Of a stretch of 64,000 nt of DNA, positions 40,895 through 46,964 are shown piece by piece. The position numbers and the translations under genes are program-made. The notes below the pieces were generated by a model. The model was not told the origin of the DNA and searched no databases. It saw nothing but the letters and a program-made list of their open reading frames with translations. How positions within the stretch are numbered: the stretch's first letter is position 1; the number at the start of each line of letters is the position of its first letter. Source of the stretch: a virus (lineage: Duplodnaviria; Caudoviricetes); the IMG/VR virus record IMGVR_UViG_3300021400_003144, one strand, 5' to 3'.

Positions 40895-41887
40895 ATGGTT
40901 AAAAGTTTAGGTAGAGCTTCAGTTCTCAAAGAGATACAGAGTAAGGCTATGAAGTATAGCATCAGAATTGTAAGTTTAAGTGATATGAAATACAGAATAG
41001 AGCTTAGTGGAGTTTCTATTACATTTGGAAGTGAAGAAGTAATAGTCCATGATTCTGTTAGAGGCAAAGTGATTTTACATGCTTACAAAATTGAGATAAT
41101 TGATGAAGATGATGGAATAGTCAAGCTATTATTTTATGTAGGTAGAACTGTTGGATTACCTTATGGATTCATATATGAAATAGATATAACAGTAAAAGGA
41201 CTAGGGTGCAGGACAAAGATAAAGCCAGATAAAACTAATGTATATAGTGCATATGATAATATAGGAAGCTTAACATATGCTCAGCTTATGAATGTGGTAA
41301 GCGACTATAAAAGTCTGAGTAATATGGAGTATAGGACAATAGTAAAAGGAAATTTACCTTATTTCAATAGAAACATATCAGAGTTAATTAGCTTATTGAG
41401 CAATATGTTTGAGCGTCTACCTAAAGGAAATGTACCTGAGGGCTATGATGATTCACTTTCACAGTTAGTAAAGAGTTATCAGTCTGGATATGACTTTTAC
41501 ATTAATAAAGATTATTATAAGCTGGCTTATGAAGATGGGTCTTTTACTTATTTTAAAGTTAACAGTAGCTGTTATGAATTACTAAAAATAAACAGATTTA
41601 TTGTTAATGAATATAGTTCTGAGAATGTGGATGACTTTAAAAGTATAAGAGTTTTAAAAGATAAGCATAAAGAATTTACACAATACATAACATTGGAAGA
41701 GAATGGTGCTTTCAGTGTTATATTTAATCTTATAAATAATATGTATTACATAAGGTTTAAGATATTCTTGTTAGATTGTTTTGATAAATATGAAGAAGCT
41801 AGAAATTCGTTAGAAATACTTGGTGGAAATAACTCAAACATAAGTGAATTTCAAGACAGTATAATAAAAGAAGTATATGCTATATAA
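40895..41887 (+). CDS. hypothetical protein
   Basis: 330 aa, AGGAG RBS. Confidence 0.75.
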   Translation: MVKSLGRASVLKEIQSKAMKYSIRIVSLSDMKYRIELSGVSITFGSEEVIVHDSVRGKVILHAYKIEIIDEDDGIVKLLFYVGRTVGLPYGFIYEIDITVKGLGCRTKIKPDKTNVYSAYDNIGSLTYAQLMNVVSDYKSLSNMEYRTIVKGNLPYFNRNISELISLLSNMFERLPKGNVPEGYDDSLSQLVKSYQSGYDFYINKDYYKLAYEDGSFTYFKVNSSCYELLKINRFIVNEYSSENVDDFKSIRVLKDKHKEFTQYITLEENGAFSVIFNLINNMYYIRFKIFLLDCFDKYEEARNSLEILGGNNSNISEFQDSIIKEVYAI

Positions 41888-41923
41888 TTTAAGGAAATAC
41901 ATTAAGGAGATTGAGGATAAAAG

Positions 41924-42721
41924 ATGATTACGGAAGTAAGAAACAGGGAATTTAGTAATGGAAAGGTTTATATGCTTAGAACTGAAGATGGGTTTCCATT
42001 GGAAACAACAGATACATTTCTTCCATACTATACTAAGGATTGTATAAATGAACATACAAATGAATTAAAGAGTGATGTACTTGGAACGAGGAAAGACAGA
42101 TGGATGATTGGAGTAAGCTGTATGTCAGGTTGTCCAGTTCATTGTAAGTTCTGTAGTACTGGTAAGTTAAAGAAGTGGAGAAACTTGACAGCTGATGAAA
42201 TTTTTGAGCAAGTAAAATTTATTTTAGATAAAAATAAAGATTACAAGCCTGAAGATGCTAAAGAATTTAAAATTAACTATACACGCATGGGTGAGCCTTT
42301 TCTTAACATTGAAAATGTTAAGAAAGCTATGAAGTTAGTTGATGAGTATGTAGGAGATGGAGTAAGAGTTCATCACTATATAAGTACAGTAGGCATTAAG
42401 GGAAGTGATTTCTCATGGATTAAGGATAACATAACATTACAGCTGAGTTTACATAGTCTTGATGAAGATAGAAGGCATGATTTAATTCCAATAAGTAATT
42501 TAATGAGCATTGAGGAATTGGGTCAGGTCAGAACAGAAAGTAATTTAAAGACTACATTAAATATGACTCTTGTAGATACAGCTGATTTTGATATTAATAA
42601 GCTTACTAAGTATTTTGATAAGGATTATTTCTTTATTAAGCTTAGTCCTATAAATGAGAATGATATAAGCAAAGAAAATAATATGGGTGCTGGAATTATA
42701 AAAGGACAGAATATAATCTAG
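41924..42721 (+). CDS. RlmN/Cfr-like radical SAM enzyme, large subunit lacking the C-terminal ACGQL segment
   Basis: GCPVHCKFCSTG, RNLTADEIFEQV, MGEPFLN, ISTVG, LSLHS; ends at KLSPINEN...QNII. Confidence 0.9.
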   Translation: MITEVRNREFSNGKVYMLRTEDGFPLETTDTFLPYYTKDCINEHTNELKSDVLGTRKDRWMIGVSCMSGCPVHCKFCSTGKLKKWRNLTADEIFEQVKFILDKNKDYKPEDAKEFKINYTRMGEPFLNIENVKKAMKLVDEYVGDGVRVHHYISTVGIKGSDFSWIKDNITLQLSLHSLDEDRRHDLIPISNLMSIEELGQVRTESNLKTTLNMTLVDTADFDINKLTKYFDKDYFFIKLSPINENDISKENNMGAGIIKGQNII

Positions 42722-42744
42722 CATAAAAGGCATAGGAGGTTGCA

Positions 42745-43575
42745 ATGGACAGTAAGTATAATCTAAACGCATTATCTTTTCTTATCGGAAGTTTAAGGGA
42801 TGTGGTTAATAACTTTGGGGCTAATGATAAGTCAGCAGCGTTTTATAGGTCACAGGTTAATAATTTAGTTAATCTTGGACAGTTAAATGAAGTGGATGCT
42901 AATTTGGTTGAGGAACTTGTAGATTTAGACCATCTAAATCATTGGAATAGCAATCAAGTTATGTTAGATAAGTTTACATATTGTATTAACATAGTTCTAT
43001 CAAACGCTTGCCTTAATGGTGATATTATTAAGGCTGACGCTGATAGAATTTTATCATATATAAATAATACTGAAGATACTCAATATATGAGAAAATCAGT
43101 TAAATTAGCACGTAAGGTTCTTGGAGTACCTGAGAATAAAACAGAGAGTAAACCTAACTGGAAATGTAGCACTCAATTTGGTACAAATAAGTTCAGCCAG
43201 AAGGCTATGCAGAATAATAAACCTGTGGCTAAGTCTGTAGATAAGTCTGTAGATAATAAAACTTATAATTTATCAGAAATTAAAAGTGACTTATCTAAAA
43301 GTATAATTAAAGCTGTTAGACCTGGTATGGTATTGGACATAAAGAACATAAATGCAGTATGTAGCAGTGATACTCCATTTTTTAGATACAAATTGCAGGA
43401 TGTAATAAGGGATGAAAAAACAATACTAGAGATAATAACAAAGTTTAAGAATGGATATCCTGTTATGATAGGTGAACTTATAGATGATGGGTGTCATATA
43501 ATAGGTTGTAATAGAAATGAGGAGTATAGCAATATACTTATTGCAAAATTGAATGAGTATGCAAAGTTGATATGA
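42745..43575 (+). CDS. hypothetical protein inside radical SAM cluster
   Basis: AGGAGG RBS; stop overlaps next ATG (ATGA). Confidence 0.8.
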   Translation: MDSKYNLNALSFLIGSLRDVVNNFGANDKSAAFYRSQVNNLVNLGQLNEVDANLVEELVDLDHLNHWNSNQVMLDKFTYCINIVLSNACLNGDIIKADADRILSYINNTEDTQYMRKSVKLARKVLGVPENKTESKPNWKCSTQFGTNKFSQKAMQNNKPVAKSVDKSVDNKTYNLSEIKSDLSKSIIKAVRPGMVLDIKNINAVCSSDTPFFRYKLQDVIRDEKTILEIITKFKNGYPVMIGELIDDGCHIIGCNRNEEYSNILIAKLNEYAKLI

Positions 43576-44429
43576 TACATATAAAAGATATTAGGGTTCA
43601 GACTAAAACATGTCTTAAAAATGGAAAGACTCAACATGATTTAGGTAAGGTTTTACAATTATATGTAGTAACCACTAGAAAGTGTAATGCGAGCTGTGAG
43701 TTTTGTGAGTTTAAGGGTGAAGTTGAGAAAGTAAATCTTGTTAAGTTTAAAGAGACTTTTGAGAAATTAAGTAAATACTTTTATATAAGTGCAGTACATT
43801 TTACTGGTGGTGAACCTTCACTTGAAATTGATACAATAAGAGATATTTGTGATTACATTAAAGAAAAAGATGTATTCATATTTACAAGTGCCAATACAAA
43901 TGGTATTAAGTTGAATGAGCTTAAGGAGATTAAGAATCTTGATAATGTAGCTCTTAGTAGACATGGGTTAAGTCAGAAAGAAAATGAGAATATATTTAAA
44001 ACAAGTAGTATAGCAAATGAGGATGACATAAAGAACTTTCCTAAAAACAAGTTACATCTAAGTTGTAACATGATAAAAGGTTATGTGGACAGTGAAGAAA
44101 AGATATATGACTACTTGGATAAGTATTCTGACTTAGGTGTTTATGATGTAGGTTTTGTAAATCTGATGAAAATAAATGAGTACTGTAAAGAAAAATTTGC
44201 AGAGTTTCCAAAAGAGCTTAGTAAATGTACTCAGACAAAGAGGTTTCAGAATATACAAGATGATATAGAAACTTGCCAGTGTAGAAACTGGTTATATAGT
44301 AATAAGAATTGTAACTTTGTATCCATATATAACAGGCATGTAGTTGGTAAGTCTGACTTAGTTGGAGCATTAATCTATGAAAATAACAAGTTATATGCTG
44401 GTTGGGGTGGAGAAGAGATACAAATATAA
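43572..44429 (+). CDS. radical SAM enzyme (GGEP type)
   Basis: CNASCEFC, HFTGGEP, NTNG, extra C-terminal Cys (TCQCRNW). Confidence 0.9.
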   Translation: MIHIKDIRVQTKTCLKNGKTQHDLGKVLQLYVVTTRKCNASCEFCEFKGEVEKVNLVKFKETFEKLSKYFYISAVHFTGGEPSLEIDTIRDICDYIKEKDVFIFTSANTNGIKLNELKEIKNLDNVALSRHGLSQKENENIFKTSSIANEDDIKNFPKNKLHLSCNMIKGYVDSEEKIYDYLDKYSDLGVYDVGFVNLMKINEYCKEKFAEFPKELSKCTQTKRFQNIQDDIETCQCRNWLYSNKNCNFVSIYNRHVVGKSDLVGALIYENNKLYAGWGGEEIQI

Positions 44430-44461
44430 AAATTAAATAAATTAAAGAAGGAGAAATTAAC

Positions 44462-44590
44462 ATGGATAAGATTATTGAAGCACTTAAAGATGCAGGGTAT
44501 GACTATGGTGTTGCTATTGCTACTCAGGCGGAGATTAAAGCTGGAGCAGCTTGTGGTCAATTAAGTTTAATTGTTGAGAACGAAAAGTAA
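44462..44590 (+). CDS. 42-aa peptide carrying the RlmN/Cfr catalytic AACGQL motif (not in ORF track)
   Basis: AAGGAG at 44448-44453, ATG 44462; MDKIIEALKDAGYDYGVAIATQAEIKAGAACGQLSLIVENEK. Confidence 0.9.
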   Translation: MDKIIEALKDAGYDYGVAIATQAEIKAGAACGQLSLIVENEK

Positions 44591-44681
44591 GAAGTAAGTA
44601 AAGGCAGTTAGTTAAAGAGTAATTATGCAGCTGCATTTGTATATAAATTTGGATAGGATTAGGATAGACTGGAGATTTTAG

Positions 44682-46964
44682 ATGAAACGTGTGGATTTAA
44701 CTGGAAAGACATTTGGAGAATTACTTGTACTTAGATATCTAGGGGATAAAACATATGTATGCAGATGTAGCTGCGGAAAAGAGATTGAGGTAGCAACATA
44801 TAGTCTGACAAGCGGAAAGAAAACTTCATGCGGACATGATAGAGTTAAAACTAATCTCAAGGGTAAAATGATTGGCAACTGGAAAGTTCTTGAGTACAAT
44901 AATGATGGAAGATGGTTGTGTGAGTGTCAGTGTGATAAGCATACAAGAAGATTGCTATATACTAACACACTTACAACTGGGAAGAGTCTGAGCTGTGGTT
45001 GTCAAGTAAAGCATACAGAGTTATTAAAAGATAAACCAGGTGATGTATATGGTGAATGGACATTATTAGAGCCATTACATAATGGAAAGTGGCTATGCAG
45101 ATGCAGTTGTGGAACTGTAAAAGAGGTAAATACAAATCAACTTCATAGTGGACAGAGTAAGAGCTGTGGGCATAGCAGATATGAAGCTAGAGTAGACTAC
45201 AAGGGTAAAAACATAGGTGACTATGGGGTTCTAGAATATATAGGTAATAGGATTTGGAAGTGCAAGTGTTTAAAATGTGGAGAGATTAAAGAAATAAGCC
45301 AAGCAAACTTAAAGGCTGAGGTTGGAACCAGATGTTCTAAAATAACATACAGAGAGAATCTTGTAGGAAAAATGTTTGGAAGATGGCAAGTTCTAGCATA
45401 CAGCGGAGATGGAAAGTGGATTTGTGAGTGCAGTTGTAAAAATCATACAAGAAGAGAGATTGAGACACATGTACTAAAATCTGGAAACAGTAAGAGTTGC
45501 GGATGTTTAATACATGATTTTGCTAGAGAGACACAGCTAAAAGACTTAACAGGTCAGATATTTGGAAACTGGAAAGCTATTGAGTATGCTGGAGACAGAA
45601 AATGGAGATGTGAGAATATTAAAAGTCATGAAATTAGAAACATACAAGGTTATAGCTTAACAAATGGATTAAATAAAGGAACAGCTAACAGGTATTCAGA
45701 CAATATAAATATAGGTGATAAATTTGGTAGATGGACAGTTATAGGTAAAGCTGGAGCAGAGCAATCTTATAAAATAATATGTCAGTGTAGCTGTGATAAA
45801 AAGACAATAAGGCTTATAAATGGTGCTTTCTTAATAAATGGATTGACTAAGAGTTGCGGATGTTTACAGGGTGAGCTTAGAAAGCAAGTACTGATTCAGA
45901 AGTATGGTGAAGTAGCTACTAATAAGGTGAATAAGCCTAGAGAAAAATGGCAGATAGAAGCTTTAAATAGCAAATATAACTTAGAGAACTATATTAATGC
46001 TATTGAAGATAAGACAGTAGTAAATATAGCAAATGGATTGGGTATAACTAGAGCTATCGCTCTTAGATATATACATAAGTATGGATTGGAATCTATTATA
46101 GAGTTCAATACTATGTCATCCTCTTATGAAAAGGAAATTGTAGAATTTATAAGAGGACTTGGAATTACAAATATAGTAACAAATGATAGAACTTTGATTA
46201 ATCCTTATGAAATTGATATATACTTACCGGATTTAAGAATTGGAATTGAGTTTAATGGTACATATTGGCATAGTAATATTTTTAAAAATAAGAAGTATCA
46301 TCAAGCTAAGTCAATATATGCATATCGTAAAACAGTAAAATTAATTCATATATTTGAATATGAATGGAGAACAAACAAGGAAGAAATTAAGGAGTACCTT
46401 AAAACTAAAATATGTGGACCAACTCAGTCAGTCTCTGCACGTAATACATATATTAAGCATGTAGATAGAGATGAAGCTATTGATTTTTTAGAGGAAAATC
46501 ATTTGCAGGGTTATGCTGAGTCATCAATCAATTTAGGTTGTTATTATAATAATGAGTTAATTGGTATAATGACTTTTGGAAAGCCTAGATTCAATAATGA
46601 ATATGAGTATGAAATTATAAGGTCTGCTTGGAAGAAAGGATATGCTGTAACAGGTGGTATAGAGAAATTATTTAAGCATTTTATAACAGAGTATACACCA
46701 AATAATGTAATGAGCTATTGTAATATAGCTAAGTTTGATGGTGGAAGCTATGGTAGATTAGGATTTAAGCTTGTAAGTATAACTGAACCAAACTATGTAT
46801 GGGTTAAAGACAATACTGTACTTTCAAGATACAAGACAACAAAGAAAGACCTATTAGATGCTGGTATTGGTACAGAGGAAGATACTGAAGATAGCATTAT
46901 GGAGAATTTAGGATACCTTAAGGTTTATGATTGTGGCAATTATAAGTTTGTTTGGAATAAATAA
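44682..46964 (+). CDS. Hef-like putative homing endonuclease with 7 Cys-rich repeats, PD-(D/E)XK domain and GNAT-like C-terminus
   Basis: repeats like DLTGKTFGELLV...CRCSCG...SCG; YEIDIYLPDLRIGIEFNGTYWH; FLEENHLQG...YDCG. Confidence 0.8.
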   Translation: MKRVDLTGKTFGELLVLRYLGDKTYVCRCSCGKEIEVATYSLTSGKKTSCGHDRVKTNLKGKMIGNWKVLEYNNDGRWLCECQCDKHTRRLLYTNTLTTGKSLSCGCQVKHTELLKDKPGDVYGEWTLLEPLHNGKWLCRCSCGTVKEVNTNQLHSGQSKSCGHSRYEARVDYKGKNIGDYGVLEYIGNRIWKCKCLKCGEIKEISQANLKAEVGTRCSKITYRENLVGKMFGRWQVLAYSGDGKWICECSCKNHTRREIETHVLKSGNSKSCGCLIHDFARETQLKDLTGQIFGNWKAIEYAGDRKWRCENIKSHEIRNIQGYSLTNGLNKGTANRYSDNINIGDKFGRWTVIGKAGAEQSYKIICQCSCDKKTIRLINGAFLINGLTKSCGCLQGELRKQVLIQKYGEVATNKVNKPREKWQIEALNSKYNLENYINAIEDKTVVNIANGLGITRAIALRYIHKYGLESIIEFNTMSSSYEKEIVEFIRGLGITNIVTNDRTLINPYEIDIYLPDLRIGIEFNGTYWHSNIFKNKKYHQAKSIYAYRKTVKLIHIFEYEWRTNKEEIKEYLKTKICGPTQSVSARNTYIKHVDRDEAIDFLEENHLQGYAESSINLGCYYNNELIGIMTFGKPRFNNEYEYEIIRSAWKKGYAVTGGIEKLFKHFITEYTPNNVMSYCNIAKFDGGSYGRLGFKLVSITEPNYVWVKDNTVLSRYKTTKKDLLDAGIGTEEDTEDSIMENLGYLKVYDCGNYKFVWNK

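Follow-up and report, generated by a model that had tools for sequence, protein, structure and literature searches.

Can the active site of a radical S-adenosylmethionine (SAM) enzyme be divided between two separately translated proteins? In RlmN and Cfr, the textbook case of methylation via a protein-bound methylene radical, both catalytic cysteines have, to our knowledge, been thought necessary in one chain. RlmN is the C2-methyl synthase of 23S rRNA A2503 and tRNA A37 (TIGR00048; PDB 3RFA, 4PL1, 5HR6/5HR7, 6FZ6) and Cfr the C8-methyltransferase of 23S rRNA A2503 (PDB 9P0P). The question is raised by a locus at positions 41924-44590 of a 64,000-nucleotide stretch of DNA (the window) from the Caudoviricetes record IMGVR_UViG_3300021400_003144, in which an RlmN-like open reading frame (ORF) lacking the catalytic loop is followed, 1.74 kb and two ORFs later, by a 42-aa peptide that carries it. 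The carrier is a giant phage, its proteins sitting on a contig of 282,865 bp. Its DNA may come from an animal gut metagenome, as is labeled the one public run that contains the entire stretch. The two halves probably form a heterodimeric class A radical SAM enzyme whose cysteine loop is supplied in trans, here of a subtype accompanied by a second radical SAM enzyme (rSAM-2) and with a nucleotide of the NAD type hinted at as substrate. The block is made up of four co-directional, packed ORFs on the + strand:

41924..42721, +: core subunit, 265 aa, with a predicted RlmN/Cfr-type (class A) radical SAM domain (TIGR00048, PDB matches, AlphaFold2 [AF2]/Foldseek, alignment)
42745..43575, +: 276-aa ORF without recognizable family, between the halves, 23 nt after the core ORF
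43572..44429, +: rSAM-2, second radical SAM enzyme, 285 aa (CNASCEFC), viperin/MoaA-like, overlapping the 276-aa ORF by 4 nt
44448..44453, +: Shine-Dalgarno sequence AAGGAG, 8 nt before the peptide ATG, read from the sequence
44462..44590, +: 42-aa peptide subunit with the AACGQL loop, Cys31 corresponding to RlmN Cys355 (alignment), 32 nt after the rSAM-2 ORF

Two ORFs that together span the RlmN catalytic domain

An earlier note on the window had taken the first ORF for an RlmN-class enzyme that stops just after KLSPINEN. The motifs on which it relied (CxxxCxxC, here within GCPVHCKFC, MGEP, ISTVG, and LSLHS) are all there, and the ORF ends 25 residues past KLSPINEN. Residues 52-199 of the core match positions 97-244 (of 355) of the NCBIfam RlmN model TIGR00048 with an E value of 5.5e-24, at a score of 84.8 bits that lies below the curated equivalog cut-off of 290. 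Sequence searches against the solved RlmN and Cfr chains gave E values from 3.7e-13 to 8.6e-8. By its AF2 model (pLDDT 92) the core has an RlmN/Cfr-type (class A) radical SAM fold: the best 11 Foldseek matches in the PDB are all RlmN or Cfr (TMq 0.58-0.69), and the next family is TYW1, at 0.47. The cluster cysteines C70, C74, and C77 align with C125, C129, and C132 of Escherichia coli RlmN and are invariant in 45 core sequences, which have no other conserved cysteine. The core begins past the RlmN N-terminal domain, no residues being aligned to RlmN 25-67 of E. coli, and ends in the stretch following the NLIPWN strand, where its tail aligns by MAFFT to RlmN NPFPGAPYGRSSNSRIDR. It carries a conserved C-terminal tail of its own, GxGVIxGxNLV (GAGIIKGQNII in the window), that has no RlmN counterpart. 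Net charge and pI of the cores go from acidic through basic and therefore do not discriminate between RNA and small-molecule targets.

The peptide covers what is missing, i.e., RlmN's final helix and strand together with its AACGQL loop. As had been claimed, in the MAFFT alignment with E. coli RlmN it spans FSKVLMSYGF to AACGQL, starts where the core stops and without overlapping it, and places Cys31 on E. coli Cys355; the ribosome-binding site ascribed to it is also in place. Cys31 is the only cysteine of the peptide and, like G32 and Q33, is invariant in 38 peptides. The methyl-carrier cysteine of the ACGQL loop is present, but in trans, on a separate chain. Among 65 related loci, a Shine-Dalgarno-like site precedes the peptide start in 33, and the ATG lies 11 codons ahead of the conserved Gly in 49. 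The gene codes for a protein under purifying selection, with a pN (nonsynonymous) of 0.157 and a pS (synonymous) of 0.799 (pN/pS of 0.20; conserved core region, 44 unique cores). The peptide is even more conserved than the core enzyme (mean column identity of 77% versus 68%), and it is acidic, with a median charge of -4.5.

The split is conserved across phages

Searches with the core found 2,018 relatives at an E value of ≤1e-10, the best 120 all of 262-279 aa, and 406 relatives of the peptide had been called as small proteins (E ≤ 0.001), numbers well above what chance would give. Linkage was counted in a sample of 68 viral loci or contigs from IMG/VR found with the core. Of these, 66 have a separate peptide gene, always on the strand of the core: adjacent and 3', within about 10-65 nt, in 51; with 0.7-5.6 kb of other genes in between in 14; and directly upstream of the core in one (L065). 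In isolated phages, the eight records with a near-full-length core are the same eight that hold the peptide, namely Kehishuvirus “tikkala” (Bacteroides), Moorella phage MTATph1, Vibrio phage D479, Yersinia phage P778, and four Pectobacterium phages. The split and its breakpoint thus recur in metagenomic loci and in isolates alike, and the closest homologs, which would have refuted the reading of the earlier note had they all been single full-length proteins and this copy alone broken, are all split in the same way and none is whole. Of the GenBank phage copies that we inspected, one carries the label “radical SAM protein” and the others are given as hypothetical; we found no paper on a split RlmN/Cfr-type enzyme.

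Peptide and core are sometimes joined, in this sample never in the order of RlmN. Among 14 longer proteins with the peptide in them, there was no case of a fusion behind the core; most of them are read-throughs or mis-called starts with unrelated neighbors. Two proteins, judging by their sequences, are natural circularly permuted fusions. In P0263 (315 aa; L079, 44-991) the peptide module is N-terminal and the core follows, under translation table 11 and on two contigs; P0278 (695 aa; L077, 67-2154) is a single chain of peptide module, core, and a further, C-terminal radical SAM domain. From these placements and fusions, the module would work behind, in front of, or tethered to the N terminus of the core. 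In the split clade, as sampled, it is never at the ancestral C-terminal junction, which fits the new conserved tail of the core, a tail that touches the peptide in the complex model described below. An apparent peptide-methyltransferase fusion, P0251, was discarded as a gene-calling artifact because its translation requires TGA to be read as Trp; the two genes are merely adjacent.

Several loci show further variations. In Vibrio phage D479 (L003, 3803-4084) the small ORF after the core consists of two tandem peptide modules, each with an AACGQM loop. Downstream of P0263 there is a separate gene for a 239-aa radical SAM enzyme. The core P0258 (L068, 4759-6561) has an in-frame intein (Hint plus LAGLIDADG, ca. 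320 aa) just past CxxxCxxC, with the peptide gene following as usual. One contig (L018, 9928-10773) has a second, divergent core-like ORF (282 aa; positions 59-190 of the core hidden Markov model [HMM]) 3 kb downstream of a regular pair, and in another (L074, 6001-6545) the core has decayed, its middle lost (HMM positions 22-116 and 227-263 are left), next to an intact peptide ORF. In Yersinia phage P778 (L005, 4777-6864) TerC and TerD genes lie ca. 0.3 kb downstream of the peptide ORF.

Modeling of the complex

The pair was folded from its own alignments with the 4Fe-4S cluster and SAM included, and was held to a docking mark that 58 of 80 solved complexes and 2 of 110 mismatched pairs attain. 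The core-peptide ipSAE was 0.81 (runs, 0.78, 0.82, and 0.81) against 0.02 for the best control, a value that may be inflated by the likeness to solved RlmN: because RlmN structures have been solved, the pass may partly be memory of the fold, and it shows likeness rather than binding. The runs share at least 71% of their contacts, with a partner pLDDT of at least 64. In the model, the tightest contacts are those of peptide residues 13-17 (YDYGV) on core residues 236-240 (FIKLS), a strand added to the sheet. The peptide makes further modeled contacts with the N-terminal sheet and C-terminal tail of the core, as well as with its MGEP region (120-122) and cluster loop (76-79). The Cys31 loop lies against the cluster loop, at the place of the RlmN C-terminal segment. 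The comparison with RlmN that the earlier note had proposed came out with the peptide predicted to dock where the RlmN C terminus sits.

The resolving cysteine is missing wherever the loop is separate

All aligned split forms have Gly at the position of RlmN Cys118, which lies seven residues ahead of the cluster motif (Gly63, invariant in 45 cores). We built a tree with 99 representatives that have the cluster motif followed by sufficient sequence (93 from the library search and 6 added references). In 43 of them Cys118 and a fused CGQ loop are found together; these form one clade, and all complete Cys118-bearing proteins have the loop. Another 18, single-chain and most of them in one clade, have the fused loop without Cys118; the loop kept in this clade is of the IGSNCGQ type. 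The split forms, with neither loop nor Cys118, account for 37 and belong to several deep lineages, and not one of the 37 keeps Cys118. The remaining representative is a short fragment with Cys118 and no loop. A distant Gly-type relative, P0319, has no peptide gene visible on its very short contig (3.5 kb).

In E. coli, the RlmN variant C118A fails to make 2-methyladenosine (m2A) and stays covalently bound to the RNA in a trapped complex (PMC5130265). With Cys118 gone, the catalytic cycle of the split form therefore needs another base or a helper. Since the RNA-binding N-terminal domain is absent as well, both the release chemistry and the target are probably unlike those of RlmN.

A second radical SAM enzyme is encoded beside the pair

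The third ORF of the block, rSAM-2, matches Pfam Radical_SAM (E 2.8e-11) and has four extra invariant cysteines (C14, C165, C235, and C237). Its scores against the NCBIfam models of MoaA (50.3 bits; cut-off, 325) and viperin (36.2 bits; cut-off, 180) are both far below threshold. The AF2 model (pLDDT 82.9) has as best Foldseek matches viperin-like enzymes, GDGT-MAS, and MoaA, with TMq of 0.5-0.59. In a reciprocal test, viral contigs were searched with the rSAM-2 alignment, and 29 clear members were recovered. The peptide lies within 8 kb in 24 of these 29 loci, together with the core in 23, and the order core, rSAM-2, peptide is kept in 19. rSAM-2 is a dedicated accessory partner of the two-piece enzyme and not a chance insertion.

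The 276-aa ORF that shares the gap had no match in Pfam, NCBIfam, or PHROG and no usable hit in the ESM Atlas. Its one homolog (L008, 7706-8518; E 1.3e-8) is located in the same kind of gap. In other lineages, the same gap holds a different radical SAM enzyme and a small methyltransferase-like gene. Incidentally, such an alternative accessory pair, a radical SAM protein of 243-280 aa and a class I methyltransferase-like protein of ca. 150 aa directly after the core, is found at L009 (6802-7964), L065 (2261-3530), L067 (6792-8007), and L071 (551-1820), and at L009 and L067 it fills the space between core and peptide. The accessory radical SAM enzymes beside the pair cannot be treated as one partner, since they fall into three or more families with no more than a generic likeness.

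Hints at the substrate

Judged by the gene context in other genomes, the target is somewhat more likely to be a small nucleotide (of adenine or nicotinamide) than RNA. Genes for NAMPT and/or NMNAT-Nudix are located within 6 kb of the pair in 12 of 39 dereplicated lineages (both in nine), and they often abut or flank it, in NARP2 NAD+ salvage operons. NARP2 has been found in 1.1% of phage genomes (bioRxiv 10.1101/2024.02.11.579819); neither that paper nor the one on NARP3 mentions a radical SAM neighbor. In addition, some single-chain relatives carry a fused domain, either of the NUDIX type or resembling a nicotinamidase (isochorismatase) or a dNTPase (HD/HD_assoc). Fused proteins of this type are P0325, P0340, P0386, P0392, P0380, and P0354.

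Proposed mechanism and alternatives

The heterodimer could work as follows. The core would hold the [4Fe-4S] cluster and SAM at its CxxxCxxC site, and the peptide strand YDYGV would join the last strand of the core, FIKLS, wrapped by the N-terminal sheet and the C-terminal tail, as in the complex model. By homology to RlmN, SAM would methylate Cys31, a 5'-deoxyadenosyl radical would turn the S-methyl group into a thiomethylene radical, and this radical would attack an electron-poor ring carbon of the substrate. Release of the adduct would differ from that of RlmN, and so probably would the substrate, given the missing Cys118 and N-terminal domain. The substrate may be a free adenine or nicotinamide nucleotide of NAD+ metabolism and not rRNA, as the context elsewhere suggests, and the enzyme of the window would belong to a subtype with a dedicated partner, the viperin/MoaA-like radical SAM enzyme whose gene lies between its halves.

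Some observations weigh against this picture. The methylation of Cys31, the radical chemistry, and the substrate are all drawn by analogy from RlmN, and without a Cys at position 118 the RlmN mechanism, as known, cannot finish. The possible inflation of the complex score counts here too. The fusions to isochorismatase, NUDIX, and HD domains sit in sister clades and not in the split clade, and the window itself has neither a NAMPT nor an NMNAT gene, so that the link to NAD does not rest on this genome.

The alternative that survives best, which we consider unlikely, is that the split enzyme does the canonical job and C-methylates an adenine in rRNA or tRNA of the host or the phage (to m2A or 8-methyladenosine, m8A), with another residue as the resolving base. 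Its closest relatives by sequence and fold are indeed RlmN and Cfr, and two phage contexts fit an RNA target: a fused relative from Stenotrophomonas phage ANB28 is encoded within a cluster of tRNA genes, and a tRNA-Arg is found near the Kehishuvirus pair. However, the split form lacks the N-terminal domain and the basic C-terminal tail of RlmN, and its peptide is acidic; the Cys118 that RlmN needs for m2A (PMC5130265) is Gly here; there are no tRNA genes in the 64-kb window; and in other phages the pair is located in NAD+ salvage operons.

It could also be that the peptide is consumed. The reaction would then halt at the thioether, leaving the peptide methylene-bridged to RNA or to a nucleotide, and the core would take a fresh peptide. 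The trapping of RlmN C118A as a covalent RNA adduct speaks for this (PMC5130265), and the loss of Cys118 goes with the split throughout the tree. The peptide always having its own start codon and the tandem modules of Vibrio phage D479 would also suit it. In its fullest form, the 42-aa peptide would be a tag thioether-linked to a nucleotide of the NAD+ pool or to RNA, with the second radical SAM enzyme processing the adduct; if true, it would be a natural enzymatic peptide-nucleotide cross-linking used by phages in the contest over NAD+. Nevertheless, P0263 and P0278 tether the module to the core, so that those enzymes would work only once; the sister single-chain clade without Cys118 (18 representatives) keeps its loop; and the gene dosage is 1:1. 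We find peptide consumption, and the tagging version of it, quite improbable.

Far less probable still is that the peptide is the end product and acts alone once the core (and here rSAM-2 as well) has modified it, in the manner of a ribosomally synthesized and posttranslationally modified peptide (RiPP). A small peptide beside one or two radical SAM genes, in some loci with a small methyltransferase-like gene, and with the peptide gene after the second enzyme in most rSAM-2 loci, does resemble a RiPP cluster. But the peptide is a residue-by-residue homolog of the structural C terminus of RlmN, is modeled as an integral strand, and occurs fused to the enzyme; it has no leader/core layout and no protease or exporter partner, and its being more conserved than the enzyme is the opposite of what is usual for RiPP precursors, which are more variable. 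Finally, the idea of a broken gene, an RlmN-like gene split by a two-gene insertion and decaying, which would account for the distance between the halves and the homing-endonuclease-like gene after the peptide, is refuted, as the same breakpoint, peptide start codon, and core tail recur in thousands of sequences, both ORFs are intact, the peptide is under purifying selection, and one of the inserted genes is a dedicated partner.

The two-component enzyme put forward in the earlier note thus stands on the conserved split, and the version in which the peptide completes the barrel is supported by the complex model with its controls and by the N-terminal fusions P0263 and P0278. The other version, an exchangeable carrier or RiPP-type substrate, is less likely, being weakened somewhat by the natural fusions and by the higher conservation of the peptide.

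Surroundings of the block

Inside the block, a consensus scan for promoters and terminators stayed at chance level (24 found versus 23.2 expected). An Rfam scan of 41500-45000 returned no intron and no other RNA family. Splicing of the core and peptide RNAs had been considered; the Rfam result does not support it, and the conserved stop and start codons exclude it. Among the public runs listed for this stretch none is of RNA, which carries no information on its expression. Nearby genes of the window encode, among others, a family A DNA polymerase and a homing endonuclease. Directly 3' of the peptide gene is a 760-aa ORF (44682-46964, +) that matches homing/HNH endonuclease families of PHROG (phrog_3339, E 1.3e-88; phrog_559, E 3.3e-77). 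The protein repeats Cys-rich modules many times and, around residues 576-640, gives a weak Mom-like/GNAT match. An ORF for a GIY-YIG endonuclease (P0256), from a different metagenome, runs into the peptide gene, and from these two cases mobile endonuclease genes seem to be frequent at this spot.

Comparison with known systems

What the split form means is that, in thousands of phage genomes, one of the two catalytic cysteines has moved to a separate peptide of 42 residues and the other has been dropped. A two-part system would let the methyl-carrier step be separated from the radical step, and it raises the question of how the adduct leaves without Cys118, or whether it leaves at all. The placement in NAD+ salvage operons and the pairing with second radical SAM enzymes suggest an undescribed reaction in phage counter-defense or nucleotide metabolism. 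The present analysis adds the reciprocal rSAM-2 test, the triple fusion P0278, the intein of P0258, and the exposure of P0251 as an artifact.

The closest known system is RlmN. The core resembles it in fold (TMq 0.60-0.69) and in the CxxxCxxC, MGEP, and SLH motifs, and the ACGQL loop comes after the same helix and strand. In contrast to the single chain of ca. 350-380 aa of RlmN, the phage form consists of two chains, lacks the N-terminal domain and the basic C-terminal tail, and has Gly for the essential Cys118; its core has gained an N-terminal insert and a new tail at the C terminus. The genes are carried by phages, often alongside a second radical SAM enzyme or within operons for NAD+ salvage. 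Cfr shares the class A radical SAM methylase fold and motifs but is more distant (TMq 0.58; E 8.6e-8) and differs otherwise as RlmN does; nothing in the analysis suggests a Cfr-like role in antibiotic resistance. The viperin and MoaA enzymes are the nearest structural neighbors of rSAM-2, in general fold only and with weak HMM matches, and they differ from it in that rSAM-2 has its four extra invariant cysteines and occurs almost only beside the two-piece enzyme.

Single-chain phage RlmN-like proteins, such as the “RlmN” of ANB28 (319 aa), are likewise phage-borne, have no RlmN N-terminal domain, and form sister clades, but they keep the loop in the same chain, one clade with Cys118 and another without. 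The RlmN variant C118A is like the split enzyme in having lost the resolving cysteine and kept the methyl carrier (PMC5130265). However, the laboratory mutant is dead and cross-linked, while the loss in phages is a natural one that does not vary across a large family and is under selection, and therefore a productive outcome must exist.

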